Counted from the first letter of the stretch, positions 132 through 22,802 are shown. The stretch is 49,732 nucleotides of DNA from a candidate division WWE3 bacterium CG22_combo_CG10-13_8_21_14_all_39_12 (GCA_002771355.1 PCSU01000056.1:1-49732), one strand, 5' to 3'. Notes: generated by a model not told the origin, from the letters alone. Made by a program: numbers and translations.

Positions 132-2294
132 TTAAATCTCACACACACTAAACCCACACTCCTTACACTTCCAACAATTGTGTTCGTGGACAAGGGGTTT
201 GTCACAATCCGGACATTTTCGCACTTTTTCTTCCTCTGGCTTATTACCATCGCCAAACTCAAACACCTGTTCACTCTTAGTTGCATCTCTATATACCGTT
301 AACCCCTTACAACCCAATTTCCATGCATGAACATACGCATCTTTAATGTCTTCTGGTGTTGCCGTTGATGGCATATTTACCGTTTTTGTAATCGCATTAT
401 CTGTCCATTTCTGGAACGAAGCCTGCATACGAATATGATCTTTCCAGTTAATATCATGTGCTACCTTAAACACTTTTTTAATATCTGCGGGCACTTCATC
501 AATCCCTTGCACACTTCCATGATTTGCTAATATTTTTTGCATCAACTCTTCGCTGTACACACCCGCGGCCTTTAACCTATCTTTTAGTTTTTCATTCATG
601 GTTTTAAGCCGCATTCCTCCTAAAATATTTTGTTCGTACGCTAGTGCAAAATGAGGTTCAATCGCAAAACTCGTTTCGCAAATAACTGCATTACCACTAC
701 TTGGTGGGAATGTAAGCAAGGCCACGTTTCGAGGTTTTTCTTTTTTGTCAGCCCAGATTGAATCTTTAACCAATGGGAATGCGCCCTTTTCTTTTGCAAT
801 CTCAACCGATGATTCAAACGCAGCCTCGTACATTGTTTTAGTTACTTTTTCGGCAAGTTTAAACGCTTCCTCAGAATCGTAGGCAATATCTAAATCAATC
901 AAAGCATCTGCCCAACCCACACAACCCATTCCTAATCGGCGATGAGCACGAACTGACTCATCAACCTTTTTTACCGGAAACCACGAAGCATCAATCACGT
1001 TATCCATTAAGCGTGTTGCTATCTTCATAACCTCAGCCAACCGTTTGTGGTCAAACTTTCCGTTGTCAATGAACTTGGTGAAGTTTACATACCCCAAATT
1101 GCATGATTCATATGGATATAACGGCACTTCTCCGCACGGATTAGTAGCCATAATCATGCCACGTTTTTTAAGTAGCGGATTGGCAAGCGCTGTTCCCCGA
1201 TTCATAGCCGATAAGTTTAGAATACCAGGATCCCCTGTTGCCCAGGCTAACTGTGCAACCAAATCAAGAATAGAACGTGCTTTAACCGTATTTTCAACTT
1301 CACCCGTTCGTGGGTTAACTAAATCCCAGTTTTTACCTTCAACCGCAGCCTCCATAAAGTCATCCGTAATACCTATTGATATATTAGTTTTGGGTAAGTA
1401 TCCATCATTTTTCTTGGCGCTAATAAAGTTAAAAATGTCAGGATGATTGGTATTTAATACAGCCATGTTTCCGCTCTCGTAACGTCCTTCTTGTCTAAAC
1501 ATGCTCGTCATCAAATCAAACATCTCTATGAGGCGCACAGGGCCTGCAGCGAGTTCTGGAATACCATTTACTGTGTCTCCTTCGGGTCGAATGTGTGAAA
1601 AATTGTATCCGCACCCACCACCATTACGCTTAATCTGTGTTGATTGGTGCAGGATTTTAAAAATATCGTCAATATCATCTTCAAGTGGCCATACAAAACA
1701 GTTAGCCAGTTGTGAACGGTCTTTACCTGAATTAGTAAGAGTTCTTGTTCCAGGCAAAAAATCAAAACTTACCATTATTGATAAGAATTTTTCGTACCAT
1801 TCCTTTTTCTTTTTGGCTCCTTTTTCTACACTACTTAGGGCTTTCGCCACGCGCTCTAACATCTGGCGTGGCGTTTCAATTGTCTGACCCTTCTCATCCC
1901 GTTTTAAGTATCTACGCTTTAGAATGTATAGCGTGTTGTACGACAAACCAATATCATCTTCAATCCCTAAAGACTCTTTGTCTTGAATTGCATGCTTTTG
2001 GTTTTCACGGTACAAAATAAACTCTTTTGAAACTTTGGCGTGACCATGTTCAATTAAGATTTTTTCAACGCCATTACCAATCTGCTCAGATGCGATAACT
2101 TTTGAATCTGGATATGTATTTACTAAATGTAAAACTGCTTCATCGGCCAGAACTTGGGCACGCTCTTTATCCGTTCCGCCAACTTTTTGTACCGCTAACC
2201 AAATCGACTGCAAAATCTTATTTTGCAAAAATGGCTGCGTGTCACCATTTCGTTTTGTTACGGTTTTAAATGGTATGGTCTTTTTATTAATCAT
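132..2294 (-). CDS. nrdJ: Class II (adenosylcobalamin-dependent) ribonucleotide reductase, paralog 1: ATP-cone + catalytic core + fused C-terminal Cys-rich zinc-finger tail
   Basis: 720-aa ORF. N-terminal ATP-cone-like segment (VTKRNGDTQPF...ILYRE). Redox Cys motifs LANCFVWPLED and ESCNLGY. Thiyl-radical loop ATNPCGEV. C-terminus CPDC-x9-CWKCKEC-x4-C. Confidence 0.9.
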   Translation of the reverse strand: MINKKTIPFKTVTKRNGDTQPFLQNKILQSIWLAVQKVGGTDKERAQVLADEAVLHLVNTYPDSKVIASEQIGNGVEKILIEHGHAKVSKEFILYRENQKHAIQDKESLGIEDDIGLSYNTLYILKRRYLKRDEKGQTIETPRQMLERVAKALSSVEKGAKKKKEWYEKFLSIMVSFDFLPGTRTLTNSGKDRSQLANCFVWPLEDDIDDIFKILHQSTQIKRNGGGCGYNFSHIRPEGDTVNGIPELAAGPVRLIEMFDLMTSMFRQEGRYESGNMAVLNTNHPDIFNFISAKKNDGYLPKTNISIGITDDFMEAAVEGKNWDLVNPRTGEVENTVKARSILDLVAQLAWATGDPGILNLSAMNRGTALANPLLKKRGMIMATNPCGEVPLYPYESCNLGYVNFTKFIDNGKFDHKRLAEVMKIATRLMDNVIDASWFPVKKVDESVRAHRRLGMGCVGWADALIDLDIAYDSEEAFKLAEKVTKTMYEAAFESSVEIAKEKGAFPLVKDSIWADKKEKPRNVALLTFPPSSGNAVICETSFAIEPHFALAYEQNILGGMRLKTMNEKLKDRLKAAGVYSEELMQKILANHGSVQGIDEVPADIKKVFKVAHDINWKDHIRMQASFQKWTDNAITKTVNMPSTATPEDIKDAYVHAWKLGCKGLTVYRDATKSEQVFEFGDGNKPEEEKVRKCPDCDKPLVHEHNCWKCKECGFSVCEI

Positions 2295-2314
2295 GTTTTA
2301 GTGAGTACACATTA

Positions 2315-4426
2315 TTAGTTGTCCAGCGAATACTCACGTTTACCCAGTGGTGTTAAGTTAACTTTTGACTGGATCATTTGTGTATCTTCACCCGATGAAC
2401 CGCTGCCAGAACTTAATACCTGCATATCACGACTTCCATCTCGATAAATAGTTACCCCCTTACAACCTAGTTTCCACGACAACATATATACTTCTTTTAC
2501 ATCATCAATCGTTGCGCTGTTTGGCATATTGATGGTTTTTGAAATGGCATTATCTGTATGTTTTTGGAAAGCTGCCTGCATTTTTACGTGAAATGCTGGT
2601 GAAATCTCGTGTGCAGTTACAAATAGCTTTTGAATTTTTTCTGGAATTTCTTTATTGTTTTGAAGCGAACCATGTTTTGAAACTTCTCCTAACACCTCAT
2701 CGTTATAAAACCCATTCTTTTTTGCCATATCTTCAAAATATTGGTTTACATAAAACACGCCTTTAGCATCAACGACATTTTTCCTAAACGCAACAGCAAA
2801 TATTGGTTCAATCCCACTTGATGCATTGGCAACCATACTTATTGAACCCGTTGGAGCAATACTTGTTCTTGCTGCATTTCGCATTTTTACTTTCATTTTT
2901 TTGTAAATACTTAAATCGTAATGTGGGAACACACCTTTTTCTTTTGCCAACTCTGCTGATGCGTTAAAGGCAGTGTCATTTACAAACTTCATAACCTCTT
3001 CAGCCGTTTTTAAGGCTTTGGGTGTGTTGTAGGGAATTCCAAGCTGAATTAACATATCGGCAAACCCCATAATTCCAAGACCAATGCGCCGGTTGCCTTT
3101 AGCCATCTCGGTAATTTTTTCGACAGGATATTCACTCAAATCAACACCATTATCCATAAACCTGGACGCTAAAATGGTGATTCGTTCAAGTTCCTTGTAA
3201 TCAATTTTGCCATCTTTTACCAATACCGCCAAATTAATAGATCCTAGGTTACAAACATCAAACGGATGTAACCACTGTTCACCACAAATATTTGTTGATT
3301 CCAAAGGCCCAAGGCCAGGTAACGGATTTGTCTTATTGGTATTATCTAAAAAGAGCATTCCCGGATCTCCGTTATCCCACGCAAGAGAGGTCATGATATC
3401 AAAAATACCCTCAGCATTTAAGGTGTGTACTTTTGCTCCAGTCCTAGGATTTATAAGATCAAAATCGCTTCCCTTTTGAACTGCTTTCATAAACGTATCG
3501 GTTGCACCAACTGAAACATTAAACGTTGTAAGGTTTTTGCCACCCCGTTTTGCATGAATAAAATCTAAAATATCAGGATGGTTGGCATTTAATACCGCCA
3601 TACTTGCAGCTTTACGATGCCCACCCATACCAATAACCTGGTTAGATGCGTCAATAACATGCATAAATGAAATAGGTCCTGTGGAAAGTCCACCTGACGA
3701 TTCCACAAAGTCTCCCGCTGGACGAATACGTGAAAAATTGTATCCCACTCCCCCACCCGCTCGTTGCGTTATTATTGCGGACTGTTTGATTGATTCATAA
3801 ATTGACTCAATACTGTCTTCAATTGGTAACACATGACAGTTTGATAACGGACCTCCAAACCCAGCATTCCGAAGATAACTTCCACCTGGAATAAATTTAC
3901 GTTTGGCCATTAACTCAAAAAACCCTTCAGCATTGTTAACAATTTCTTTTTTGCTTAATCCATACCTTTTATCTACATCAGCAATTGAGCTTGATACCCG
4001 TTCAAAAAGTTGGGTTGGATTCTCAATTGGATTGCCTGATGCATCTTTGCGTAAATGCCTAGCTTTAAGCGCACGTAATGAATTTATCGGTAGTTCAAGT
4101 GCATCATCAATCCCCAAGCTTTTACGCTCTTCTCGACGCTGTTCACGGTTTTTTCGGTACAAAATAAACGCTTTGGCAACATCATAATAACCGGCCGCCA
4201 TAAGGCATTGCTCAATCACATCTTGAATCTGTTCAACTTCAGGAACAGTAACATGTGTCTTTTTTAAGATCTCAACAACAATCTCACTTAAGCGTTTTGC
4301 CTCCTTTTCACCAAATGCCGATAGAGAATCTGCCGCTTTAAAAATTGCACGAATAATCCGATCTTTATCGAAAGCAACTATTGAACCATCTCGTTTTTTA
4401 ATTGTTGTTAGTGTTTTAGGTGACAT
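2315..4426 (-). CDS. nrdJ: Class II ribonucleotide reductase, paralog 2: ATP-cone + core, no Cys tail
   Basis: 703-aa ORF, 20 nt upstream of paralog 1. ATP-cone (IKKRDGSIVAFDKDRI...ILYRK). LSNCHVLPIED, STNICGEQ and DVCNLGS motifs. C-terminus is Gly/Ser-rich with no cysteines. Confidence 0.88.
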   Translation of the reverse strand: MSPKTLTTIKKRDGSIVAFDKDRIIRAIFKAADSLSAFGEKEAKRLSEIVVEILKKTHVTVPEVEQIQDVIEQCLMAAGYYDVAKAFILYRKNREQRREERKSLGIDDALELPINSLRALKARHLRKDASGNPIENPTQLFERVSSSIADVDKRYGLSKKEIVNNAEGFFELMAKRKFIPGGSYLRNAGFGGPLSNCHVLPIEDSIESIYESIKQSAIITQRAGGGVGYNFSRIRPAGDFVESSGGLSTGPISFMHVIDASNQVIGMGGHRKAASMAVLNANHPDILDFIHAKRGGKNLTTFNVSVGATDTFMKAVQKGSDFDLINPRTGAKVHTLNAEGIFDIMTSLAWDNGDPGMLFLDNTNKTNPLPGLGPLESTNICGEQWLHPFDVCNLGSINLAVLVKDGKIDYKELERITILASRFMDNGVDLSEYPVEKITEMAKGNRRIGLGIMGFADMLIQLGIPYNTPKALKTAEEVMKFVNDTAFNASAELAKEKGVFPHYDLSIYKKMKVKMRNAARTSIAPTGSISMVANASSGIEPIFAVAFRKNVVDAKGVFYVNQYFEDMAKKNGFYNDEVLGEVSKHGSLQNNKEIPEKIQKLFVTAHEISPAFHVKMQAAFQKHTDNAISKTINMPNSATIDDVKEVYMLSWKLGCKGVTIYRDGSRDMQVLSSGSGSSGEDTQMIQSKVNLTPLGKREYSLDN

Positions 4427-4496
4427 CTAAAATGTGTACATTTTTTAAACTAGTAAGTTTTTTCGAATGATTTCATCATTCTTATTTTTACTCTTA

Positions 4497-6299
4497 TTAT
4501 TTTTCCAACCTCTTTGTCTTGCTGGTTGCCATTACTTGAAACATTTTTGAACCATCCCGATAAATGGTTACGCCTTTACAACGCTCCTTCCATGCCAACA
4601 TGTAGGCATTCTTAACATCATCAAGCGTAGCCTCATTTGGTAGATTAATGGTCTTACTTACAGAATTATCTGCATACTCTTGCCACGCTGCTTGAATCTT
4701 TACGTGATATTTCCAACTAATATCATGCGTGGTTACAAATACTTTTTTAAGGTCTTCAGGGATCTCATCAATCCCATGCAAACTCCCACCGTTTTCAATG
4801 ATCTTTTCAATAATAGTCTTTTTATGCAACCCTCGCTCTTTTAAGGTTTCTTCGAAAACAGGATCAAGATATGTCATCACTTCAGTTGGTTTGTTTTCAC
4901 TTGCCTTCTCAAAGGATGTTCGTCTTTCATATCCAAGTGAAAACGCAGGCTCTATTCCTGAGGTTGTGTTGGCTATCATTGATACCGTACCTGTTGGAGC
5001 AATGGTAAACATGGTACTGTTCCGGTACTTTTCGGCTGTACCTTTGTACGTTGAAATATCAAAATTCGGAAAAACCCCTCTGGTGGTGGCTAGCTCTAGA
5101 GACGCTTTTTCAAACTCCCCCTTAATAAACTTTGCCATTCGCCTGGCAAACCTGACACCTTCCATTGAGTTATAAGAAATACCAAGCTTAAATAACACAT
5201 GCCCAAACCCAATCACACCTGCACCAATTTTTCTATTTCCATACCGAACCATTTTTTCTGTCTCAGGCAATATGTATGTATTAACCTCAATCATATTATC
5301 CAAAAACCTCACAATAGTACGCGTAGTTTGAGCCAACGTATCCCAATCAACTGTCCAATCCTTTCCCTTTTTAACCATATGTGAATCAAGGTTTATTGAT
5401 GATAAATTACAACTCTCAAATGGAAGTAGAGGTTGTTCTCCACAAGGATTTGTCGCATTCAAAAGTCCTAGTGAGGGAGTAAAATTATCTTCTTCAGTGC
5501 GATCTAAAAACATGAGTCCTGGATCTCCACTAATCCACGCATGTTCAGAAATTTGATCAAACAGTGCCCTGGCTTTTATTTTTTTAACCACTTCCCCATT
5601 ACGTGGATTTACAAGCGACCACATTTTGTCGTCTTGTACCGCTTCCATGAATTCATTAGTAACACCAACCGAAATATTAAAGTTTTTAATTGTTTGATCC
5701 TCATCTTTAACTTGAATAAAATCCTCAATATCTGGATGATCAACGTTTAAAATTCCCATGTTTCCACCATGACGTTTGCCACCTTGAATAACTTTAGATA
5801 ATGCGGCTGAATAGGCCTGCAAAAAATCAACAGGACCAGATGCAGCATTTAATACTCCCCTGACCTTATCACCATGTGGGCGTATTTTTGAAAAGTTAAA
5901 TCCTGTACCACCATAATTTTTCTGAACAATTGCAGCTTTTCCTAGATTCTCAAAAATGGAGCTTATATTATCTTCAACTGGAATCACAAAACAGGGGGAT
6001 AACTGATTTGCTGCTGTTGGATTACCCGCTTCATAAAGAGTACTCCGTGTAACAATAAGTCTGTTTTCACGCATAGACTCAAAAAACATTTCACGAGCAG
6101 CCTCAACTTCGGTCCCATTTCCCCAATTAAGTTCAGCCTTTGCCATATGGTTTGCAACTCGAAGATATATCTCGCCCGGTGTCTCTAAAGACTTCCCATC
6201 ATCATCTGTAATAGAACAACGTGACACCAGTGTTTTTTTTGCATTAGGAGCCATCTTTGGTTCTTTAAAATACTTTGGTTTTTTTATATTTATTTTCAT
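4497..6299 (-). CDS. nrdJ: Class II ribonucleotide reductase, paralog 3: core only (no ATP-cone, no Cys tail)
   Basis: 600-aa ORF. LSPCFVIPVED, ATNPCGEQPLLPFESCNLSS and VTIYRDGS motifs. The start could alternatively be Met16 (MAPNAKK). Confidence 0.88.
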   Translation of the reverse strand: MKINIKKPKYFKEPKMAPNAKKTLVSRCSITDDDGKSLETPGEIYLRVANHMAKAELNWGNGTEVEAAREMFFESMRENRLIVTRSTLYEAGNPTAANQLSPCFVIPVEDNISSIFENLGKAAIVQKNYGGTGFNFSKIRPHGDKVRGVLNAASGPVDFLQAYSAALSKVIQGGKRHGGNMGILNVDHPDIEDFIQVKDEDQTIKNFNISVGVTNEFMEAVQDDKMWSLVNPRNGEVVKKIKARALFDQISEHAWISGDPGLMFLDRTEEDNFTPSLGLLNATNPCGEQPLLPFESCNLSSINLDSHMVKKGKDWTVDWDTLAQTTRTIVRFLDNMIEVNTYILPETEKMVRYGNRKIGAGVIGFGHVLFKLGISYNSMEGVRFARRMAKFIKGEFEKASLELATTRGVFPNFDISTYKGTAEKYRNSTMFTIAPTGTVSMIANTTSGIEPAFSLGYERRTSFEKASENKPTEVMTYLDPVFEETLKERGLHKKTIIEKIIENGGSLHGIDEIPEDLKKVFVTTHDISWKYHVKIQAAWQEYADNSVSKTINLPNEATLDDVKNAYMLAWKERCKGVTIYRDGSKMFQVMATSKTKRLEK

Positions 6300-6404
6300 A
6301 ATCTTAAGATGTAACCCTATCTATGGACTCAGAATATATAAGGGATTTCTGCCTTACCATATTCTGAATCCACAACTATAATTACCACTGGTAACTATAT
6401 ACCA

Positions 6405-6575
6405 CTAACTGCATTTTGTGTGTCCACATGACAAACACAAAAAACATCCTTCTTGAAAAGCAACAGGACCAGCCCCACATTCTGGACAGAAAAAGTTACT
6501 CGTCTGATCTTCTGCAGAATTAGTATTCTCATTGGCACCTGTTAATTGTATTGTTTGCGTCTCAGTTTGAATAAT
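6405..6575 (-). CDS. Stand-alone Cys-rich zinc-ribbon mini-protein resembling the class II RNR C-terminal redox tail (56 codons, putative ATT start)
   Basis: Hand translation of the minus strand gives IIQTETQTIQLTGANENTNSAEDQTSNFFCPECGAGPVAFQEGCFLCLSCGHTKCS, ending at TAG (6407-6405). The Cys spacing C-x2-C-x10-C-x2-C-x2-C-x4-C matches the tail of paralog 1. A strong SD, AAGGAGGTG (6588-6580), sits just upstream of ATT at 6575 (GGAGG core 6 nt upstream). The open frame contains no ATG, GTG or TTG. Confidence 0.5.
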   Translation of the reverse strand: MIQTETQTIQLTGANENTNSAEDQTSNFFCPECGAGPVAFQEGCFLCLSCGHTKCS

Positions 6576-6595
6576 AAAACACCTCCTTATGTTGT

Positions 6596-8341
6596 TTACT
6601 TTGCTCCTACCGTTAAAACTTGAGTATCTCTACTGTTATTTCTATATACGGTAACTCCTTTGCACTTTAAGTCGTACGCTTGAATATATACATTCTCAAC
6701 ATCTTCTATGGTTGATTGTTCTGGCATATTTACCGTTTTAGTAATAGCATTATCAGTAAATTCCTGAAACGCTGCTTGCATCTTTACATGCCATTCAGGT
6801 GATATATCATGTGCCGTAACAAAAGATCGCTTTAAATCATCAGGTATTGCATCAATATCCCTAACGGACCCTACAACACCAATTCGTTCCATAATTTCAT
6901 TAGAATTGACACCTCGTTTTTGAGATACTTTTTTAAAAACCGGATTAAGTTCAACAAGTTTTGTATCTCCCATTGTCTCCATGTTTTGCCTGGTATAAGC
7001 CAACGCAAAAAATGGTTCTATTCCGCCAGAAACCCCCGCAACAAGACTCGTTGTACCGGTTGGAGCAATTGTAGTTATTGTACAGTTTCGCATTCGATCA
7101 AAACCCCACTTTTCAAACACACTTTTATCAAAGTTCGGAAAACTTCCTTTCTCTTCAGCTAATTTCATTGATTCATCACGTCCAATATCAGTCATTCGCT
7201 TCATAAGTTTACGAGCCAACTCTAGCGCATCCTCGGAATCATAAGGAATTCCCTGATACGCCAACACATCAGCAAAGCCCATGACGCCAAGCCCAATTCG
7301 ACGATTACCATGATTAACATCATACATTTCTTGAATGGGGTATTCATTTAAATCAATACTATTGTCTAAAAATCTAACAGCAAGACGAACTACCCGTTCA
7401 TACTCATTCCAATCAAAAACATACCCTTCCTGCGTTTCATTCAAAAATCGTGGCAGAACAATAGAACCTAGTGTACATGCTTCATATGGAAGCAATGGTT
7501 GCTCACCACACTGATTGACTGACTCGATCTTTCCAACTCCAGGTACCGTATTGTGTCGATTAATTTCATCAATAAAAATCACGCCTGGTTCTGCACTACT
7601 GTGAGCACTCTCTGCAATTTGTCGTAATAATTTTCTGGCACTTACCGTTTCCCACACTTTTCCATCCCTCGGGTTGATGAGGTTAAAATCAGAATCCGTT
7701 TTTACAGCGTCCATAAATGCGTCAGTTATTGCAACAGAAATATTAAAATTAGTTAGCTGAGAGTAATCTTTTTTAGCATCAATAAATTTAAAAATATCTG
7801 GATGATCAACACGCAACACGCCCATATGTCCTGCATGACGAATCGAACCAATATTTAAAATCACTTCACTACTAAAGTCAAACAAACGCATAAATGAAAT
7901 TGGTCCTGTTGCTGGCTTTCCTGTTGATAAAATCATGTCCCCTTCAGGGCGAATTTTAGAAAAATCATAACCTACAGCAGCGCCAGCACGATGAACCAAA
8001 GCTGCATTATGGAGTGTTCCATAAATAGATGTTAAATGATCTTCAATGGGCAAAACAAAACATGCCGAAAGTATGCGATTTGACCGACCTGCGTTTCGCA
8101 TTGGAGTTCCTGACACAAATTTAAGACTCGATAAAATATCGTAAAAATCTTCTTCAACCGACTCAGCAGACCGACTGGTGGGATATTTATTCTCAACGGA
8201 GGCCAATGTTTTTGCAATACGCTCAAACATCTCTTCTGGAGTTTCAAGAACATTACCACTCTCATCCCTTCGAAGATACCGTTTTTCAAGTACCGTTAAT
8301 CCATTTTCGGGAATGTCTAGTGATGTTAGTACTTTACTCAT
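6596..8341 (-). CDS. nrdJ: Class II ribonucleotide reductase, paralog 4: core only
   Basis: 581-aa ORF. LSACFVLPIED, SVNQCGEQPLLPYEACTLGS and VTVYRNNS motifs. Ends ...TVGAK with no Cys tail. Confidence 0.88.
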   Translation of the reverse strand: MSKVLTSLDIPENGLTVLEKRYLRRDESGNVLETPEEMFERIAKTLASVENKYPTSRSAESVEEDFYDILSSLKFVSGTPMRNAGRSNRILSACFVLPIEDHLTSIYGTLHNAALVHRAGAAVGYDFSKIRPEGDMILSTGKPATGPISFMRLFDFSSEVILNIGSIRHAGHMGVLRVDHPDIFKFIDAKKDYSQLTNFNISVAITDAFMDAVKTDSDFNLINPRDGKVWETVSARKLLRQIAESAHSSAEPGVIFIDEINRHNTVPGVGKIESVNQCGEQPLLPYEACTLGSIVLPRFLNETQEGYVFDWNEYERVVRLAVRFLDNSIDLNEYPIQEMYDVNHGNRRIGLGVMGFADVLAYQGIPYDSEDALELARKLMKRMTDIGRDESMKLAEEKGSFPNFDKSVFEKWGFDRMRNCTITTIAPTGTTSLVAGVSGGIEPFFALAYTRQNMETMGDTKLVELNPVFKKVSQKRGVNSNEIMERIGVVGSVRDIDAIPDDLKRSFVTAHDISPEWHVKMQAAFQEFTDNAITKTVNMPEQSTIEDVENVYIQAYDLKCKGVTVYRNNSRDTQVLTVGAK

Positions 8342-8355
8342 GAGTGATACTTCTT

Positions 8356-8383
8356 ATCATAAAAAAAACAGAGTATTAGTCAA
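8356..8383 (-). promoter_or_regulatory. Candidate sigma70-type promoter for nrdJ paralog 4 (TTGACT-16 nt-TATGAT)
   Basis: Minus strand reads TTGACT (8383-8378), a 16-nt spacer, then TATGAT (8361-8356). The ATG lies 14 nt downstream of the -10 and no SD is visible. Confidence 0.45.
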
Positions 8384-8556
8384 CGGTACTTTTTTGCCGT
8401 TAGTTCATCCTTAATGGAGTGTACATAAAATCAAACCGTAGTACGGGCATGGATTGAAGGTAAGCAGTTTACTCATCGCATAGCTTGCAAACTGCCCTTT
8501 ACAATAATCTCAACTTACGGTATAGAGTTCATAAGAACAAACTTATAAAAAAAATT

Positions 8557-9099
8557 ATGAAGATTTACACACGAACTGGAGATAACGGAAAGACCTCTCT
8601 TTTTACTGGTGAGAGAACATCAAAAGATGCCTTACGAATAATATGTATTGGAACAATTGATGAACTAAATGCAGCAATCGGAGTCGTTGTTTCTCAACTA
8701 AAAAACACTCCTTCCTCTGAAGACACTGCCATCCGCTTGAGAACTATCCAACGCAAACTCTTTACTACCGGTAGTTCACTTGCAAACTCTAATCTTTCCA
8801 TAACACAAGAAGATATTAACAATATGGAAGCTAGTATTGATTACTTAACTGATCACCTACCAACACTTAACAATTTTATTTTGCCTGGAGGTAGTCAGGC
8901 TGCAAGTAGTTGCCATCTTGCACGAACTATCTGTAGAAGATGCGAACGGCTATTAGTAACTCTAAACAACACTGAGTCGATTGACCCACTTGTTTTGCAA
9001 TTTTTTAATCGCCTTTCTGACTATTTATTCACGATAGCACGGGCAATAAATATTAACGAAGGTACAGGAGAAATAATTTGGAATAGACATAATCTGTAA
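8557..9099 (+). CDS. pduO: PduO-type ATP:cob(I)alamin adenosyltransferase
   Basis: The N-terminus MKIYTRTGDNGKTSLFTGERTSKD is the hallmark PduO/MMAB-type start. About 180 aa with a helical-bundle-type sequence. I chose ATG 8557 rather than the ORF-track start at 8485. Confidence 0.85.
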   Translation: MKIYTRTGDNGKTSLFTGERTSKDALRIICIGTIDELNAAIGVVVSQLKNTPSSEDTAIRLRTIQRKLFTTGSSLANSNLSITQEDINNMEASIDYLTDHLPTLNNFILPGGSQAASSCHLARTICRRCERLLVTLNNTESIDPLVLQFFNRLSDYLFTIARAININEGTGEIIWNRHNL

Positions 9100-11770: not shown

Positions 11771-12604
11771 TTACGAATATCTTACCACAGGGCGATCAAA
11801 TCGCAAATCAAGTTCAATAACTGTTTTCCCAGATCGTAAAGATCCTGTAAAAATTGGCTCTATTAACTGTAAAATCTCAGATGGGTTTTGTTTGGAACTT
11901 ATCTTAATTACTAATCGATTTTCAGAATTTAAATATATGGTTTGTAAAATTCGAGTAGTTTCACCTGAAGCTTCCATCACAACTTCAGACAAAGTAAGTC
12001 CAACTGATCCCCACTCAAAAGTTGCTGCTGACAAAAACCATTCTATTGTGCTCATTGGAATTGACTCCCCTACTGAGATTTTTGAGCCAAGTTGAGTCTC
12101 ACCAATTGAGACGACTGGAACAATCTCAGGAAGCTTCTCAATATTTTGATACGAATAAAAGACCATGCCGTCATCAGAAACTAGATACCACGTATCAGAT
12201 GTGTGAATACACAGTACCGGTACAAATTCCTCATAAGATATTTTTACTGTGCCTGGTAACTCGCGTGTAACGGTACTATTTTTTACCTGAGGATATTGCG
12301 CAGTAATTTCACGTTCGAGATCATTTCCAGGATACATAAAAATTGATGACGGTACATACTTTTGGGCCAAAATCCCAACCTCTGAACGTGCAACATACAT
12401 TTCACTCTGTGGCGAGACAATTATTTCTTTTACTAAAAAAGTATCACCTGTTGCTATGACAAATACAATACTAAGTAATGCAATAACACCAATTACGTAA
12501 CCGATGAGTTTTTTTGTCGGAATAAATCTTTTAACATTAATTCGTTTCGGCAGTGTGTTTTTATTTCGACGTTTCAGTCGCCGAAACCATTGTGGTGATC
12601 TCAT
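11771..12604 (-). CDS. ftsQ: FtsQ/DivIB-like division protein (basic N-terminus, one TM helix, POTRA-like domain)
   Basis: Basic N-terminus, TM helix LIGYVIGVIALLSIVFVIA, and a POTRA-like FLVKEIIVSPQ...RELPGTVKISYEEFVP. Position between murG and ftsA. Overlaps the murG 3' end by 44 nt. Confidence 0.75.
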   Translation of the reverse strand: MRSPQWFRRLKRRNKNTLPKRINVKRFIPTKKLIGYVIGVIALLSIVFVIATGDTFLVKEIIVSPQSEMYVARSEVGILAQKYVPSSIFMYPGNDLEREITAQYPQVKNSTVTRELPGTVKISYEEFVPVLCIHTSDTWYLVSDDGMVFYSYQNIEKLPEIVPVVSIGETQLGSKISVGESIPMSTIEWFLSAATFEWGSVGLTLSEVVMEASGETTRILQTIYLNSENRLVIKISSKQNPSEILQLIEPIFTGSLRSGKTVIELDLRFDRPVVRYS

Positions 12605-13700
12605 TTACAATTCTCTCCTTTGCATTAAAAATTACTCTGGATTTTGCAACCTTGGCTTGATTATAAAACTGTTGATACTTTGACAACATTGTATCAAGAG
12701 TTTTTTCAAGAGTTTCAGGTGATAACCTATCTTCAGCTAACAACAATGCCGCACCTTCATTAACAAGCATCCGAGCATTCTTATGTTGCTCGTTGTGAGA
12801 AACCCACGGAATAGGTACAAAAATCGCTGGTTTTGCTAATGCAGCAACTTCATAAACCGTATGTCCACCAGCACGCGACAATACAATTGATGCCTGCGAA
12901 AATACGCTCCCTATTTCTTCTTCATATATGTACTTTTCAACTCGATATCTGGATTGCAACTGTTTCGATAACATCTGTTTGTGTTTAATAGCCGTATCAT
13001 AATCATTAAAGACCGTACTTCCTCCAGTCTGATGCACAATATTGACCTTCAGTAACAATGATTCTAAAGATTTTTGTATTGTTTCATTTATAATATGACT
13101 TCCTTGCTTACCACCTGTCACATATAAAATCGGCAAATCGTTAGTAAACATAGGTACACTATCTGTTTGAAATAATTCTGGCCGTAATGGTAGTCCCGTT
13201 ATGGTAACTTTGTTTTGATCAAAGTACCGTTTTGACTGTGGCCATGTTACAAAAACTTTCGTAGCAAAAAATCCAATAAATCTGTTCGCTAAACCTACAA
13301 CGGTTGTCTGCTCATGAGTTACACTAGGAATTCGCTGTATCCACGCAGCCAAAACCACAGGAGTAGCCAGATATCCGCCAAAACTTACTACCAAATCAGG
13401 GCGATCACGTAGTAAATACCAAAATGCTTGAAAGAACCCAAATGGTAACCGAAGCCAGTGGAGAGGATGAAATGTCTTGTATAATTTTCCGGCCTTAACT
13501 TCTCTAAACGGGATTGAACTTTTTGTAACTTCTTGATACTCAGCAGACAAACTTAAGTCACCAAACATAGAGTACTTATGCCCATACCAAACCACAAGCG
13601 CCTTTTTTTGCTCAAAAAGTTCTCGCGCAATTGTTAGAGCAGAATTGTGGTGTCCACCTGTAAAAATTATCGTTGGTAATTGTATTTTTTCATCTGACAT
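12561..13700 (-). CDS. murG: MurG-type UDP-GlcNAc:lipid I N-acetylglucosaminyltransferase
   Basis: GT28 architecture: N-terminal FTGGHHNSAL, TGGKQGS, and RAGGHTVYEVAALAKPAIFVPIP...HNEQHKNA. Sits downstream of ftsW. Confidence 0.85.
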   Translation of the reverse strand: MSDEKIQLPTIIFTGGHHNSALTIARELFEQKKALVVWYGHKYSMFGDLSLSAEYQEVTKSSIPFREVKAGKLYKTFHPLHWLRLPFGFFQAFWYLLRDRPDLVVSFGGYLATPVVLAAWIQRIPSVTHEQTTVVGLANRFIGFFATKVFVTWPQSKRYFDQNKVTITGLPLRPELFQTDSVPMFTNDLPILYVTGGKQGSHIINETIQKSLESLLLKVNIVHQTGGSTVFNDYDTAIKHKQMLSKQLQSRYRVEKYIYEEEIGSVFSQASIVLSRAGGHTVYEVAALAKPAIFVPIPWVSHNEQHKNARMLVNEGAALLLAEDRLSPETLEKTLDTMLSKYQQFYNQAKVAKSRVIFNAKERIVNEITTMVSATETSK

Positions 13701-13769
13701 TGCGTGGCTATTGTACCAAAGTATCTATCCACATGAACACCTAAAATAAAACTACTCAAGATCCAAATA

Positions 13770-14909
13770 CTACACCTGCCCACGAGCACTTCGCGAAATG
13801 TTTATCAAAATCCCAACCGAAACAAGAAGTAATGTTAATGAAGTGCCCCCGTAACTTATAAAAGGAAGTGGTACACCAGTCAGTGGCATTAATCCAACCA
13901 TTCCCCCTAAATTCACCAACGTTTGAAACGCAATTGTAGTGGTAATACCAACAGCCAAAAATTTACCAAACGGATCTGAAGCTCTTTGTGCAATTGTAAT
14001 TCCTCGCCAAATCACAAATGCAAGTGCACCAATTACTAAAATCGCACCTATAAAACCTAATTCTTCACCGATAATTGCAAATATAGAATCAGTCGTAACC
14101 TCTGGGATATACTCATATTTTTGGCGAGAACTCCCTAGTCCAAGCCCCAATATGCCACCTGACCCCAGTGCAATAAATATTTGTGTAATTTGATATGAAA
14201 CTCCCTGAGGATCCGCCAACGGGTCCAGAAATGTGAAGATTCTTTGCCTTCTATAATCACTCGATAATGCATAAATAACTGCAGAAACAGCTCCTGATAT
14301 CCCAGCAAGACTTATCCAAAACAATGATGCTCCCGCAACAAAATAGACCATAAGCGCTGTTACAGAAATCAAAATTGCGTTTCCGAGATCAGGTTCTAAT
14401 GCCGTTAAAAGTAGAATTGTACCAACAACAACTAAAAATGGCTTGTGGGGCAATCCTCTTCGTATATCTTTATCAAACAAAGCAGCCAAATATATAACGA
14501 TGCTTAACTTAGCGATCTCAGATGGTTGAACTGATATGCTTTGCAAAAATGGCACCGGTATATATAGGCGCTGCTTTGCACCATACACCTCTTGTGAAAA
14601 ACCAGGGAGTAGTACGACAAGAAGTAAAATAATGGTTAAAACAATAAGTGGAAATGCAATCTTTTTTAAAACATGATAATCAATATTACTTACAATAAAG
14701 GCTCCAACTATACCAATAAATGCCCATATGCTCTGGTTTTTTAAAAACCAAAACTTGTCCCCAAATTCTTCAAATGCAACAACGACACTTGTGTTGTAAA
14801 CCATAAACACACCAAACAGCGTGAGTGCTAACACAACTCCAGCAAGCACATAATCTGTTACCGCAAAGGTTCTTATTTTAAAACTGTTCTTTTTTGATCG
14901 TACGGGCAT
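13770..14909 (-). CDS. ftsW: FtsW/RodA (SEDS) peptidoglycan polymerase
   Basis: About 10 TM helices. SEDS motifs QPSEIAKL, PDLGN, TDSIFAIIGEELGFIG and PLPFISYGGTS. Confidence 0.9.
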   Translation of the reverse strand: MPVRSKKNSFKIRTFAVTDYVLAGVVLALTLFGVFMVYNTSVVVAFEEFGDKFWFLKNQSIWAFIGIVGAFIVSNIDYHVLKKIAFPLIVLTIILLLVVLLPGFSQEVYGAKQRLYIPVPFLQSISVQPSEIAKLSIVIYLAALFDKDIRRGLPHKPFLVVVGTILLLTALEPDLGNAILISVTALMVYFVAGASLFWISLAGISGAVSAVIYALSSDYRRQRIFTFLDPLADPQGVSYQITQIFIALGSGGILGLGLGSSRQKYEYIPEVTTDSIFAIIGEELGFIGAILVIGALAFVIWRGITIAQRASDPFGKFLAVGITTTIAFQTLVNLGGMVGLMPLTGVPLPFISYGGTSLTLLLVSVGILINISRSARGQV

Positions 14910-16224
14910 GATTAATTACATCCTCAGGGAACATTTCTAAAGATTGAATTTCAAAAAGTTGCTCATTACTAGATACACTCCTTCCATCACCAATTGTAAG
15001 TAATAAAAATTCATCTTTGGTCAACCCGCCAACAGTATATTGAGATGAGATAAATTCAATTCTTTGATCTCCTCCAACATAAACCCCATTAGGGGGGGTG
15101 TGATTAATAATCACCTGTGATGCTTCAGTATTTCTTGAAATAACTCTCATTCCCTTCAGCTGTTTTGTGAAAAAGTATGGATCATCGATCATGGTATCGT
15201 TAATAGTAATACCAAAGCTTTTATAATGTTCGTTTAAAAGACTTGATCCACATACCTCCTGTTCAAGTTGAGTTATCATCTGGGCAGAAGCTGTAAACCG
15301 TGGATTCATCTCCTGGGCATAAACTCTTGCATGCTCATCTACCAAAAAATCCAATCCAAAAAAACCACGATATCCAAGATCACGCGCAATTGTTGCTAAC
15401 TTAACTGTTATTCTCCCAATGTCAAAAACAACGTCCTTTGTCTTAGTACTAAAATATGGTACAAGGTCCGTCCATACGTTTCCAACAGTACTACCCTCCA
15501 TACGAGCTAAGGGAACCTCCTCATTCATGTCATCATTTATTTGAATAAAAGGATACGTTTGATAAACTTCACTCTCTGAAACTACAGCATTAATAGTAAG
15601 TGTTGTTCCTGGTATAAACTGCGATACTTTTACCTTACGATTACTATACTGATCTCGCAAACTGAATAGATCCGACTCACTTTCAAGAAAAAATGTACGG
15701 TTCCCAAACCAACCTCTTTCAAACTGAACAACCATTCGTTCTCCAAATTCTTGAGACAATGAGTCAAAATGAAGATTATTTAAGTGCTCAACACGAGACG
15801 GCGGGTGAGGTATCTGGTGCTCCTTACACATGCGAACAAAGTTTAATTTATTTTCTAATAGCGAACTTACGGCTGGCGATGCATTCAAAGAACGTATTGT
15901 ACGAGATTTACCTAATGGCGTTTCAGCTATCACTTTCTCTAATGAAAATAATGGTTTAAAAAATATAATCCCCACCTCATCAACACTTCTTTTTAAGATA
16001 AACTCTTGAACTGCATCATGAAGTAACAATTTACGACTATTACGAACGATTATGTCTCCCCCCAATTCTTTTTCAATACAAAATACCGATACACCTTTTT
16101 CTATAAGCATATCAACAATATCGGTATAGTCGACGCAAATCACATGAAAATTCTCATATAAATCTTCAATGCCAAGGGCCCGTAAAGGATCTGTTGCTAC
16201 GTAAAATATTGGTAATCTTTCCAT
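14878..16224 (-). CDS. ATP-grasp family ligase of unknown substrate, occupying the usual murD position
   Basis: 448 aa. C-terminal ATP-grasp core FFGLDFLVDEHARVYAQEMNPRFTAS. Its stop overlaps the ftsW start by 32 nt and its start is 4 nt after the PLP gene. Confidence 0.7.
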   Translation of the reverse strand: MERLPIFYVATDPLRALGIEDLYENFHVICVDYTDIVDMLIEKGVSVFCIEKELGGDIIVRNSRKLLLHDAVQEFILKRSVDEVGIIFFKPLFSLEKVIAETPLGKSRTIRSLNASPAVSSLLENKLNFVRMCKEHQIPHPPSRVEHLNNLHFDSLSQEFGERMVVQFERGWFGNRTFFLESESDLFSLRDQYSNRKVKVSQFIPGTTLTINAVVSESEVYQTYPFIQINDDMNEEVPLARMEGSTVGNVWTDLVPYFSTKTKDVVFDIGRITVKLATIARDLGYRGFFGLDFLVDEHARVYAQEMNPRFTASAQMITQLEQEVCGSSLLNEHYKSFGITINDTMIDDPYFFTKQLKGMRVISRNTEASQVIINHTPPNGVYVGGDQRIEFISSQYTVGGLTKDEFLLLTIGDGRSVSSNEQLFEIQSLEMFPEDVINHARTIKKEQF

Positions 16225-16228
16225 TTGT

Positions 16229-17119
16229 TTAGGTTAGCACAACTACAACATGACTGTTTATCTTAAAATTTACAGTTTGAGCTTTTATAAATCCCGCATA
16301 AGCAAGCGCTCCCTCCTTTGAAAAATCAGTAACCCCATATTCTGTAAGTGTATTAATTGCAGATAAAACCTCATCATCTGTAACAATCCACCCGGATCCA
16401 TTGGTAGCTTTAACTGCATCAATTACTAACTCTTTTCGATCGGTCTGCCTTGCAACAATACCGGTAACAATACTTCGTGCCTTTTTTCTAAACGTTGTAT
16501 CAAATTTTGAAGCAATAGTATTAATATGTTGCGATTGCACAACATGAATCTGCGGCATACTTTCACGTGGCGTATCAGCCATAACAATACCCTCCCAAAA
16601 GCCCTGTACGGTTGTGCCAGAACTAACAGGAAAAAATATACTTACACCATCAACATTCTCACCCTGGGTTTTAATTTGTTGTTGTATTTCATCCCACAGT
16701 GCTTGGTAACCTTTGGTAGCATTACTATCTTTTGATTGTCTCACATACGGAATTGAGTGTTTATGGGAAAAATCTATAGCTCCTTGAATTGCCATTTCTT
16801 GTTTATGAATTATCGCTCCATAGCTAGACAATCTTTCAAACCGAACCGGTTCAATAAAAGGTGGTACAAAAGCATGCAGTGTAATTCCTGCCACCTGACA
16901 ATAGTACGCTGCAGCAACTGAAGCATTCCCCGAAGAAGATACTACAATTTCTCTATGATTCCCCTCAACCATATGGGCAATTTGCCATACCATCCCTCGC
17001 GACTTAACCGAACCAGTAACGTTATGATCTTCTCTTTTTAGCCATACATTTCCAACGTTTTGAAGTGGCGTTTCTGGCCAAGGTAAAGCGTAGTCATTTG
17101 CAAACTGCGAAGCATTCAT
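16229..17119 (-). CDS. Fold-type II PLP-dependent enzyme (Trp-synthase-beta/threonine-synthase/cysteine-synthase superfamily)
   Basis: PLP-lysine motif KREDHNVTGSVKSRG, plus SSSGNASVAAA and a phosphate-loop-like PVSSGTTV. 296 aa. Confidence 0.8.
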   Translation of the reverse strand: MNASQFANDYALPWPETPLQNVGNVWLKREDHNVTGSVKSRGMVWQIAHMVEGNHREIVVSSSGNASVAAAYYCQVAGITLHAFVPPFIEPVRFERLSSYGAIIHKQEMAIQGAIDFSHKHSIPYVRQSKDSNATKGYQALWDEIQQQIKTQGENVDGVSIFFPVSSGTTVQGFWEGIVMADTPRESMPQIHVVQSQHINTIASKFDTTFRKKARSIVTGIVARQTDRKELVIDAVKATNGSGWIVTDDEVLSAINTLTEYGVTDFSKEGALAYAGFIKAQTVNFKINSHVVVVLT

Positions 17120-17172
17120 ATACGTAGTATACTATTTTTTATAAGACAATTGTGTTAAAGGTGGTGAATAAA

Positions 17173-17343
17173 ATGGAAGAAATTCAAACAAAACAAGTAC
17201 CATGTCTAGACTGCGACTCTACTCTTGAGGTCGTTGACGATATTGAGATTGGAGATATTCTAGTATGCGAGGGTTGCGGTGTTGAACTAGAAGTAGTTAA
17301 CAATAACCCCACAGAACTTGATTATCTCTATGTTCAAAAATAA
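17173..17343 (+). CDS. LysW-like zinc-ribbon small protein (amino-group carrier protein fold) lacking the canonical acidic EDWGE tail
   Basis: 56 aa: MEEIQTKQVPCLDCDSTLEVVDDIEIGDILVCEGCGVELEVVNNNPTELDYLYVQK. The CxxC...GE/D-I-hydrophobic-C-E-x-CG-x-ELEVV pattern matches LysW. SD AAGGTGGTG lies 6 nt before ATG 17173. Antisense to the dcw operon. Confidence 0.6.
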   Translation: MEEIQTKQVPCLDCDSTLEVVDDIEIGDILVCEGCGVELEVVNNNPTELDYLYVQK

Positions 17344-21335: not shown

Positions 21336-22802
21336 ATGGATAACAATTTTAGTATTGATAATCTCAAACAAGCAGTTCTTATGTATCACCCATCTGCAGA
21401 AATTGAGATAATAGATAACGCCTACAATTTTGCCGAGATGGCATATGCGGACATAAACAGAATTGACGATACCCCACTTATTGATCATGCCCTTGCAACG
21501 GCACTTATCCTTGCTGATATTCGAGTTGACGAACACACTATTGCAGCAGGTCTCCTTCATGACATCATCCATGAAACAGATCTTTCCCTCCAGGATATAG
21601 AAGGTGATTTTGAACCAGAAACCTTAAAACTCATTACTGACATTAGTAAACTTAAAACATATACGACAAAACAAAGTGAACTAGCCTATGCCCAACAATT
21701 AAGAAATCTATTTCTTGCTACAACTGAAGACATTCGTGTTGTTTTAGTACGACTTGCTGAAAAAATCCACAACTTACATAGCATTACAGCTCTTCCGCAA
21801 GAAAAAAGACTTGTTGTTGCTCAAAAAGCTATTGACATTTATGCACCACTTGCCGACCTATTGGGTGTTCAAAAATTTAAACGTGAACTTGAAGACCGAG
21901 CATTTGAGGTTTTAAACAAAGTAGAATTTGAAACCATAAAAAATTATTATGACTCCAGGTATGGTTCACAAGACAGTACGGTTAATGCGATCCACGATGA
22001 CTTACAGCAAACACTCGCATCACGAAACATGGATTTCAAACTGTATGGACGCATGAAGGCAAAATACAGTACCTATAAAAAATTCCTTGCAGAAAGCGAG
22101 GGGAAACAGACTCTTGAAGATTTTCTCGATACTATTTATGACAAAATTGGATTCACTATTCTTGTTAACTCAACGGAAGACTGCTACAGGAGTTTAAGCA
22201 CCTTGCGTCGTGAATTCCCTTCTGCACGGGATCTAGTCAAGGACTATATTATAAATCCCAAACCTAATGGATATAAAGCTATTCACACCTACATAACTAC
22301 AAAAAACGACATGCCTTGTGAGGTTCAAATAAAAACTCACATCATGCACGAATTTAATGAATTTGGGCCTGCTGCACATGCATTCTACAAACTTGTGGGT
22401 AGAAAACGTGGTTCCTTGCTTGAAACACCTGAAGAGAAAATAACTCAAATGAAAGAACTCTTACATTGGAAGGAAGGCATTCTTAGCGATAACGATGCGA
22501 CAACAAAACTAACAACTTTCAAAAAACATATTTATGTCTTTACCCCTAAAGCCGATGTTATTGAACTACCTCACGGTGCAACCCCAATAGATTTTGCATA
22601 CCATATTCACACTAAAATTGGCGATCGCATACGTGGAGCTCATGTTAATAATAAATTTGTCGGTATAGATCATGTTTTAGAGAATGGTGATGTATGCGAA
22701 ATCCTAACCCGTAACGGAAGACAAAAACCAAGCCGTGATTGGCTCAGAATAGCAAAAACTGCTGCAGCTCGAAGCCAGATTAGAAAATCACTTCAAGAAT
22801 AA
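21336..22802 (+). CDS. RelA/SpoT homolog (HD-like domain + (p)ppGpp synthetase domain + TGS), no ACT/RRM domain
   Basis: AAGLLHDIIHETD (HD), GRMKAKYSTYKKF, DYIINPKPNGYKAIHT, EVQIKTHIMHEFNEFGPAAHAFYK, and TGS IYVFTPKADVIELPHGATPIDFAYHIHTKIG. Opposite strand to the dcw genes. Confidence 0.88.
   Translation: MDNNFSIDNLKQAVLMYHPSAEIEIIDNAYNFAEMAYADINRIDDTPLIDHALATALILADIRVDEHTIAAGLLHDIIHETDLSLQDIEGDFEPETLKLITDISKLKTYTTKQSELAYAQQLRNLFLATTEDIRVVLVRLAEKIHNLHSITALPQEKRLVVAQKAIDIYAPLADLLGVQKFKRELEDRAFEVLNKVEFETIKNYYDSRYGSQDSTVNAIHDDLQQTLASRNMDFKLYGRMKAKYSTYKKFLAESEGKQTLEDFLDTIYDKIGFTILVNSTEDCYRSLSTLRREFPSARDLVKDYIINPKPNGYKAIHTYITTKNDMPCEVQIKTHIMHEFNEFGPAAHAFYKLVGRKRGSLLETPEEKITQMKELLHWKEGILSDNDATTKLTTFKKHIYVFTPKADVIELPHGATPIDFAYHIHTKIGDRIRGAHVNNKFVGIDHVLENGDVCEILTRNGRQKPSRDWLRIAKTAAARSQIRKSLQE

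Follow-up and report, generated by a model that had tools for sequence, protein, structure and literature searches.

A conserved array of four diverged class II ribonucleotide reductase genes and a small zinc-finger gene in a WWE3 bacterium

Ribonucleotide reductase (RNR) is the sole de novo route to DNA precursors, and the locus described here raises the question why a small bacterial genome should carry four genes for its catalytic subunit side by side. The array occupies positions 132 to 8,341 of a 49,732-nt stretch of DNA from candidate division WWE3 bacterium CG22_combo_CG10-13_8_21_14_all_39_12 (GCA_002771355.1 PCSU01000056.1:1-49732), the whole of which is referred to as the window. All four genes encode class II RNRs (NrdJ), and a gene for a 55-aa zinc-finger (Zn-finger) protein was found between the first two of them. 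The arrangement is real and conserved, and it is an unusual variant of a well-known enzyme. Among the loci examined, it is the largest version of a trait that spans several lineages of the Candidate Phyla Radiation (CPR). With moderate confidence, the four copies are regarded as active, non-redundant isozymes with split roles, of which the tail-less ones would be served in trans.

In the following, J1 to J4 denote the 720-, 703-, 600- and 581-aa copies, which are transcribed in the order J4, J3, J2, J1. Residues are numbered after the NrdJ of Thermotoga maritima (1XJE), to which J4 was aligned with phmmer. The array comprises the following features:

6596-8341, minus strand: nrdJ copy J4, 581 aa, transcribed first, without ATP-cone and without Cys tail
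7823-7861, minus strand: loop 2 of J4, ILNIGSIRHAGHM, without Gln203, Arg207 kept
7499-7519, minus strand: finger loop of J4, VNQCGEQ
6405-6572, minus strand: stand-alone Zn-finger (mini Cys-rich domain) gene, 55 aa, between J4 and J3
6311-6385, minus strand: RNA hairpin, from its folding energy, between the Zn-finger gene and J3
4497-6299, minus strand: nrdJ copy J3, 600 aa, without ATP-cone and without Cys tail
5757-5792, minus strand: loop 2 of J3, VIQGGKRHGGNM, canonical, with Gln203 and Arg207
5433-5453, minus strand: finger loop of J3, TNPCGEQ, canonical
2315-4426, minus strand: nrdJ copy J2, 703 aa
4142-4405, minus strand: ATP-cone of J2 (aa 8-95)
3599-3634, minus strand: loop 2 of J2, IGMGGHRKAASM, Met in place of Gln203
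3275-3295, minus strand: finger loop of J2, TNICGEQ
132-2294, minus strand: nrdJ copy J1, 720 aa
1995-2264, minus strand: ATP-cone of J1 (aa 11-100)
1464-1499, minus strand: loop 2 of J1, FRQEGRYESGNM, Tyr in place of Arg207
690-710, minus strand: phosphate loop of J1, FPPSSGN, which replaces IAPTG[ST]
135-215, minus strand: fused Zn-finger tail of J1, CPDC...CWKCKECGFSVC

The four same-strand open reading frames (ORFs) reported in the initial annotation were all recovered at these coordinates. The RNR all-alpha (PF00317) and ten-stranded barrel (PF02867) domains were identified in each of them, with E-values of 1e-119 to 1e-130 for the barrel (Pfam). For the equivalog model TIGR02504 (NrdJ_Z, NCBI), which has a whole-protein cut-off of 399.95 bits, the scores were 593.4 (J1), 643.8 (J2), 626.7 (J3) and 643.9 bits (J4). 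The E-values of the array proteins are as low as 1e-236, so that chance is no issue. None of the residues C134, D141, R171, N320, C322, E324 and C333 varies among the four copies. In the effector pocket, position 158 is K or R throughout, next to the invariant D141 and R171. The thiyl-radical motifs quoted initially (TNPCGEV for J1, and TNICGEQ, TNPCGEQ and VNQCGEQ for J2 to J4) and both redox cysteines were correct, and the pair C134/C333 was also present in every array module that is not cut by a contig end. With the radical Cys, Asn/Glu, redox pair and effector pocket all kept, none of the copies is an obvious pseudoenzyme, as had been stated. Both the curated model and the catalytic residues place all four in the NrdJ family. 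That J1 to J4 are catalytically competent, non-redundant, adenosylcobalamin (AdoCbl)-dependent RNR subunits, expressed from one operon together with the Zn-finger protein, is part of the preferred reading to which we give an even chance, judging from their sequences.

The accessory modules differ between the copies, in agreement with the initial description. An ATP-cone was detected only in J1 (60.8 bits) and J2 (79.7 bits; Pfam cut-off 25.8), where the motif KR[DN]G...F...[KR]I is visible, and none was found in J3 and J4. The C-terminal regions of J2, J3 and J4 contain no cysteines; J2 ends after a TPLxxRxY motif and J4 17 residues past the YR motif. J1 alone of the four has a fused tail, which is a short Zn finger without a TSCPD/IscU-like part. 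A Cys-rich Zn-finger domain is found at the C-terminus of about 70% of NrdJ proteins (PMC5704485) and was shown to be required for turnover with a non-dithiol reductant (Loderer 2017, PMC5704485). The NrdJa/NrdJb system of Pseudomonas aeruginosa works with a module that is encoded by a gene of its own (Crona 2015, PMC4520616).

The Cys-rich module is not confined to J1, as the initial annotation had assumed, because a conserved Zn-finger gene lies between J4 and J3. The 296-nt gap between these two genes holds a 55-codon ORF encoding CPECGAGPVAFQEGCFLCLSCGHTKCS (6405-6572, minus strand). Its product lies in another frame and reads IQTETQ...FFCPECGAGPVAFQEGCFLCLSCGHTKCS up to the stop codon. 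The ORF begins 23 nt past the J4 stop and has its own Shine-Dalgarno sequence, AGGAGG (AAGGAGG), 6 nt upstream. The start codon is ATT in the window and in a second contig from the same population (L001), and ATG behind an identical AAGGAGG in the related loci L002, L170/L171 and L168. In L170 and L171 it is annotated as a 55-aa gene. Since ATG, GTG and TTG starts are missing here, the ORF was overlooked by the ORF lister and by the JGI gene caller. The ATT is either a rare non-canonical start, or the gene is down-tuned or silenced in this population. A −1 frameshifted tail of J4 was considered as another origin of this stretch and was ruled out, because an ATG follows this Shine-Dalgarno sequence at the aligned position in the relatives.

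When the window is compared to L002, the Zn-finger half of the 55-aa protein is 100% identical despite about 14 synonymous changes, whereas the N-terminal half varies freely. In a single-sequence AlphaFold2 model, approximately residues 31-55 have a predicted local distance difference test score of about 80-86 and form three short strands, and the N-terminal half is disordered; the folded part comprises only the last 25-28 or so residues. No Pfam match was found in the 55-aa protein. The cysteine pattern C-x2-C-x9-10-C-x2-C-x2-C-G-x3-C is common to this protein, the end of J1 and about 20 other NrdJ tails. The fused C-terminal Zn finger of a Collierbacteria J3-class NrdJ is 57% identical over 28 residues (E 2e-9), and the BLASTP match to the tail of J1 itself was not significant (E 0.22). 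The protein is taken as a putative Zn-finger module of the class II type, where Zn is bound by four Cys and a Cys pair shuttles reducing equivalents (PMC5704485, PMC9669993). The window has two tails for four barrels.

The copies differ most clearly in the loops that handle the substrate, among them loop 2, which links the effector site to the recognition of the base. In Escherichia coli RNR, pyrimidines are selected by Gln294 (T. maritima Gln203), which swings in for this purpose (Zimanyi 2016, PMC4728125); in the variant Q294A, reduction of CDP and UDP was lost and that of ADP and GDP was retained. The residue that latches all substrates is Arg298 (T. maritima Arg207), and essentially no activity is left in R298A (PMC4728125). 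The T. maritima equivalents of the specificity and substrate residues are Gln203, Arg207, Asp141, Lys158, Arg171 and Ser91 (PMC4728125). The following loop-2 sequences were found, with the residues at positions 203/207:

T. maritima reference: VVKQGSRRRGALM, Gln/Arg
J3 class: [IL]QG[GA]KRxG[GA]N, Gln/Arg, canonical
J1 class (117 members): FRQEG[KR]YESGNM, almost invariant, Gln/Tyr
J2 (WWE3): IGMGGHRKAASM, Met/Arg
J4: ILN(I)GxxRHAGHM, Asn or Ile/Arg

The array therefore holds four loop-2 types (Gln/Arg, Gln/Tyr, 'IGMGG' and 'ILNIG'). Of the four copies, J3 alone has the canonical pair Gln203 and Arg207, and J1, J2 and J4 depart from it; the Gln203/Arg207 pattern is not part of any formal NrdJ family definition. 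In the J1 class, a conserved Arg stands beside the Ser91-equivalent residue, the phosphate loop IAPTG[ST] is replaced by FPPSSGN, and position 206 is Arg in J1 itself and Arg or Lys in the class. The finger-loop Pro is present in J1 and J3 (NPCGE) and is replaced in J2 (NICGE) and J4 (NQCGE). The class II finger loop was described as NPCxE in 3175 of 3347 sequences (95%; PMC9669993), so that J2 and J4, without the Pro, belong to a minority of about 5%. Furthermore, an unbiased scan gave 115 alignment columns that are conserved inside each of the four classes, of which 37 differ between classes. These differing columns make up 15 of the 25 in the loop-2 and phosphate-loop bins compared to 22 of the 90 elsewhere (Fisher p = 0.0014, with post hoc grouping).

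The same gene array was found in related assemblies. The order J4, Zn-finger gene, J3, J2, (J1) recurs in L001, L002, L170/L171 and L168, the last with J4, J3 and J2 but without an adjacent J1. The synteny search proposed initially thus had a positive outcome in L002, L170/L171 and L168. The array-bearing assemblies come from JGI, Logan, NCBI and ENA, were made from different samples with different assemblers, and represent at least four independent, WWE3-like cases. L001 is 99.99% identical to the window across the 8.2-kb array. Compared to L002, a relative of about 81% identity, the J1 to J4 proteins are 77-85% identical, FtsZ 87% and PduO 62%. For the four nrdJ genes, the rate of nonsynonymous substitution (dN) was 0.11-0.17 and the synonymous rate (dS) was saturated. 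Each copy is under strong purifying selection and roughly as conserved as ftsZ.

The pairwise core identity among J1 to J4 is 37-46%. In neighbour-joining (NJ) trees with 200 bootstraps, J1 groups with Woesebacteria-type genes (100%), J3 with Collierbacteria/Woesebacteria genes (100%) and J4 with Dojkabacteria/Patescibacteria genes (91%). J2 groups with its WWE3 orthologues (100%), and its nearest other relatives are ATP-cone NrdJs of Collierbacteria and Beckwithbacteria. The J1, J3 and J4 classes are common to other CPR phyla, and the J2 class is common to WWE3 relatives. J4 and J2 share more residues with NrdJs from other phyla, DPANN archaea among them (about 50% identity), than with their neighbours in the array. 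Since the copies group with outside counterparts and not with their neighbours, they are ancient paralogues or xenologues and did not arise by local tandem duplication. The initial claim of an old divergence is borne out by the low identity, the saturated dS and the reach of the classes into other phyla. The GC content and the GC content at third codon positions (GC3) of the array match the remainder of the window.

The array is not a peculiarity of this genome: relatives share it, and other CPR lineages have two to three copies or fusions. Every inspected context of J1-class or J4-class genes contains at least two NrdJ barrels. Woesebacteria-type loci consist of nrdR, a TSCPD-type NrdJ, sometimes a J3-class copy, and a J1-class copy, with the nrdJ genes often 4-10 nt apart or overlapping. 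Three tandem copies are found in Collierbacteria loci, and CPR-like metagenome contigs also carry two to three tandem genes or two-barrel fusions. In Collierbacteria and Woesebacteria, each NrdJ copy bears its own Zn-finger tail. The J1 class comprises 117 dereplicated members (among P0121-P0240) from WWE3 and Woesebacteria, which are about 65-88% identical, and in nine of nine distinct loci inspected the J1-class gene lies directly downstream of another nrdJ. In broad scans that started from J3 or J2, multiple NrdJ genes inside a 10-kb span were found in only 2 of 80 genome loci (both Collierbacteria) and in 4 of 80 metagenome loci. The J2-seeded metagenome scan returned mostly single-copy ATP-cone NrdJs from other phyla and informs on the background rate only.

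The Dojkabacteria locus L003 carries a J4-type gene and a 1604-aa NrdJ-Ham1-NrdJ-TSCPD fusion (12503-17317). In the JGI metagenome contig L174, nrdR, a J4-type gene and a NUDIX gene are accompanied by a 1424-aa NrdJ-NrdJ-TSCPD fusion (12254-16528), in which the linker between the barrels is about 12 aa long. Further two-barrel fusions are P0241, P0242 and the N-terminally truncated P0395 (1155 aa); full-length fusions range from 1351 to 1604 aa. In all of them the first barrel has Gln203, the second lacks it, and both are catalytically intact. The L003 and L174 fusions each end in a single TSCPD plus Zn-finger tail, that is, one Zn finger per two barrels.

Genes for NUDIX, MazG and dCTP-deaminase/dUTPase proteins adjoin the arrays in L002 (18825-19265), L084 (12157-13017), L172 (12146-12601), L174 (11784-12218), L175 (12315-13989) and L003 (9406-9948). 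Together with Ham1, these neighbours suggest a neighbourhood of dNTP production and pool sanitation. As a separate observation, a Collierbacteria J3-class NrdJ (L023, 487-3705) is interrupted, at the finger loop or directly beside it, by an intein that bears a LAGLIDADG homing endonuclease, and inteins also occur in several ATP-cone NrdJ matches (P0440, P0446, P0461).

Upstream of the array, two features were identified:

8356-8383, minus strand: sigma-70-like site TTGACT-16 nt-TATGAT, the best one upstream of the array, ending about 14 nt before the ATG of J4
8485-9099, plus strand: PduO-type ATP:cob(I)alamin adenosyltransferase (PF01923, E 1.6e-56), divergent from the array

PduO-type adenosyltransferases produce the AdoCbl cofactor. 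The predicted use of adenosylcobalamin as the radical generator is supported by genomic context, here and in the related arrays. A PduO gene also lies a few kb or less from the NrdJ arrays of L002, L084, L085, L087, L168, L170, L172, L173 and L175. In the window it is listed from a TTG at 8485 (204 aa), while the orthologues and the JGI call have 180 aa and start with MKIYT, which corresponds to 8557. The true start is probably 8557, and the divergent promoter region would therefore be about 215 nt long. No partner of the NrdB/F or NrdG type was seen in the annotated parts of the window.

With regard to regulation, no Rfam family was detected in the window at gathering thresholds. A known RNA element such as a riboswitch, whether in front of the array or within it, was rejected accordingly, and the leader of about 14 nt is too short for a riboswitch. 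No tRNA is associated with the array. Control by NrdR was likewise rejected: no NrdR-box-like palindrome was found near the array, and two weak matches elsewhere in the window are at chance level. The nrdR gene is not adjacent to the array here, in contrast to the Woesebacteria loci. The hairpin at 6311-6385 has a folding energy of -40.1 kcal/mol (z -6.2), and is not followed by a T-run. The window contains a single copy, and the corresponding spacer of L002 lacks it. The hairpin may be an element of mRNA processing or stability, or a small insertion.

The array follows a division and cell-wall cluster (mraZ, mraW, penicillin-binding protein, mur ligases, ftsW, murG, ftsQ-like, ftsA, ftsZ), and the named best matches are labelled 'candidate division WWE3'. 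Within this otherwise co-directional cluster, a RelA/SpoT-type gene (HD, synthetase and TGS domains) lies on the opposite strand (21336-22802, plus strand). In addition, a 695-aa Mur-ligase ORF (18385-20472, minus strand) has Mur domains over approximately its first 413 residues and a C-terminal part of about 280 residues without Pfam match.

According to the preferred reading, the four copies would divide the work of one allosterically reprogrammed RNR. J3, with Gln203 and Arg207, would be the canonical enzyme. J2 and J4 would probably favour purines, since the pyrimidine-selecting Gln is missing. J1 would grip its substrate differently, with the Gln kept, a Tyr for the latch Arg, an altered phosphate loop and an Arg beside the Ser91 equivalent. 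Only J1 and J2 would be switchable by ATP/dATP via their predicted ATP-cones. After each turnover, the active-site disulfide would be re-reduced by the Cys pair of a Zn-finger module. J1 would use its own tail. For J4, J3 and J2, which have none, the 55-aa protein would act in trans, much as NrdJb does for NrdJa, or a partner's tail would take this part. The specialisation proposed in the initial annotation is in line with the class-specific changes in loop 2, finger loop and phosphate loop; the division of roles itself is only inferred. The initial argument that four copies in a CPR-type genome call for non-redundant roles is strengthened by the ftsZ-level conservation and by the classes shared across phyla.

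Several points weigh against this reading. The functions of the array proteins are deduced from sequence alone. All four copies keep the effector pocket, and therefore each might still reduce all four substrates according to the usual allosteric rules. Gln294 was described as unlikely to be strictly conserved across RNRs (Zimanyi 2016, PMC4728125), so that its absence only hints at a purine preference. The Arg/Lys at position 206 of J1 might serve as the latch, and the loop-2 alignment is possibly shifted by one residue. The classes were drawn by NJ trees and identity thresholds, not by maximum likelihood. The ATT start may mean that the Zn-finger ORF has little or zero expression here. Since all Collierbacteria and Woesebacteria copies have their own tails, tail sharing would be particular to the WWE3-like lineage and the fusions. 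Finally, a separately expressed Cys-rich domain failed to restore activity to the truncated enzyme of Stackebrandtia nassauensis (PMC5704485).

The alternative that survives best is that of obligate hetero-oligomers, in which the paralogs would pair as asymmetric class II heterodimers, for example a Gln-type with a non-Gln barrel. It overlaps with the reading of split roles; the sole difference is that mixed dimers would be required. Each dimer interface would then combine two unlike active and specificity sites, and the ATP-cone and Zn-finger tail of one protomer would serve the other. The two-barrel proteins L003 (1604 aa), L174 (1424 aa), P0241, P0242 and P0395 can be read as 'Rosetta-stone' fusions, as an intact Gln203 module precedes an intact non-Gln module in every one. 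The nrdJ upstream of the J1-class gene in nine of nine loci, often only 4-10 nt away or overlapping, points in the same direction, and so does the shortage of tails (two for four barrels in the window, one for two or one for three in the fusions). The alpha subunit of class I RNR reportedly uses its tail to re-reduce the neighbouring alpha (a paper listed as Zhang 2007 by PMC5704485). Because Gln and non-Gln barrels are fused and the J1 class was never seen without a partner, mixed dimers are a serious possibility, if a tentative one. This idea, already raised in the initial annotation, gains from the natural fusions and loses from the copy numbers of two, three or four, odd ones included, and from the Collierbacteria and Woesebacteria copies that all carry their own tail. 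Furthermore, L168 has J4, J3 and J2 without an adjacent J1, and tight spacing is common anyway in compact CPR genomes. The copies may act as homodimers in parallel or as mixed dimers. A far-reaching version, in which barrels with fixed loop-2 types each serve a subset of substrates and effectors as asymmetric heterodimers sharing one Zn-finger shuttle, is considered doubtful.

An improbable explanation is that the copies are condition-specific isozymes ('ecoparalogs') with the same substrate range, tuned to different cobamides, to redox conditions or reductants, or to dATP-regulated versus unregulated supply. The ATP-cones on two copies only and the adjoining PduO adenosyltransferase would fit such a function. 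CPR bacteria rely on scavenged cofactors. Cobamide selectivity is documented for another AdoCbl enzyme (PMC6759758). However, the operon-like layout, in which the gaps are short and only one good promoter-like site is present, argues for co-expression and against alternative expression. In addition, the positions that tell the classes apart are concentrated in the specificity and phosphate loops, and fusions of two different barrels would be senseless for alternative use.

Redundancy in transit, in which recent horizontal acquisitions await their loss, and decoy or pseudoenzyme copies are strongly disfavoured and very unlikely. Redundancy is the null hypothesis for same-class RNR paralogues of Lundin et al. 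2010 (PMC3019208), and the copies indeed resemble NrdJs from other phyla (about 50% identity) more than one another. This null is contradicted by the conservation across species and phyla: four classes are kept in the same order between species with saturated synonymous sites, J1, J3 and J4 span CPR phyla, and J2 is nearest to the Collierbacteria/Beckwithbacteria ATP-cone NrdJs. GC and GC3 also fit the host. Of the 45 array modules examined, each has the complete catalytic set unless it is cut by a contig end, which speaks against the decoy or purely regulatory copies suggested initially. An assembly artefact, whether strain chimera or collapsed repeats, is practically excluded, as nothing was found for it, copies with 37-46% identity cannot be strain variants, the order is identical in the JGI, Logan, NCBI and ENA assemblies, and L001 repeats the array almost to the base.

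Among known systems, the best solved-structure match is the dimeric class II NrdJ of T. maritima (1XJE; E 1e-104 for J4), with which all four copies share the barrel, the all-alpha N-domain, the catalytic Cys/Asn/Glu, the redox pair and the effector pocket. There, one gene provides one enzyme for four substrates via loop-2 reprogramming, whereas four genes are found here. Compared to it, only the loop 2 of J3 is canonical, J1 lacks Arg207, and J2 and J4 lack Gln203 and the finger-loop Pro. P. aeruginosa NrdJa/NrdJb resembles the array in that a Cys-rich module forms its own gene adjoining a tail-less catalytic gene (PMC4520616). NrdJb has an IscU-like domain and a Zn finger and serves one NrdJa (PMC9669993), whereas the free module here has 55 aa, consists only of a Zn finger and a disordered linker, and lies amid three tail-less paralogs. 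NrdJa also has an extra C-terminal docking domain (PMC9669993), while J4 ends shortly after its YR motif.

More than one class II gene, with a Cys-rich domain on some copies, is likewise found in some Frankia and Alphaproteobacteria with two NrdJd and one Cys-rich domain (PMC5704485). Those are two copies of one subclass, compared to up to four deeply diverged tandem classes here, which are kept across CPR phyla and have class-specific specificity loops. In class I, paralogous alpha subunits are represented by yeast Rnr1/Rnr3 and by class Ia plus Ib within a single bacterium, and the yeast alphas can form mixed dimers. These genomes resemble the present one in having several catalytic subunits of the same class (also PMC3019208), but in those genomes the paralogs serve as back-ups with differing expression and have one specificity loop in common, while here they lie in one operon and the specificity loops differ. 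According to Lundin et al. 2010 (PMC3019208), two or more gene sets of the same RNR class are a relatively common finding. The initial premise that bacteria usually encode a single nrdJ was thus too strong as an established fact (PMC3019208; two NrdJd in some Frankia/Alphaproteobacteria, PMC5704485). In the incompletely searchable literature, no description was found of arrays with several NrdJ genes, of two-barrel fusions or of an NrdJ class lacking Arg207 in CPR/Patescibacteria, and the two papers of Burnim et al. contain no mention of paralogs or CPR.

For annotation, the array means that a Zn-finger gene is overlooked by gene callers and that all copies are tallied merely as 'nrdJ' in metabolic reconstructions. 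It also provides testable material: four small enzymes, tail-less or tailed, with a naturally 'mutated' loop 2, a 117-member class without the latch arginine, and a minimal 55-aa putative Zn-finger shuttle that could clarify electron delivery by the class II Cys-rich domain. The allosteric specificity switch is regarded as conserved in all RNR classes, on the basis of few characterised enzymes (PMC4728125). In the organisms considered here, genomes of about 1 Mb devote about 8 kb to four diverged catalytic subunits, and some relatives fuse two barrels. The array and the fusions point to another way of balancing dNTP pools, perhaps one that suits life on scavenged nucleotides and cobamides. If barrels with fixed loop-2 types indeed partition the substrates as heterodimers, the enzyme would be the first class II RNR to form heterodimers and the first RNR class shown to work without the loop-2 latch arginine, and the 'one enzyme, four substrates' logic would be partly replaced by genetic partition in these CPR bacteria.

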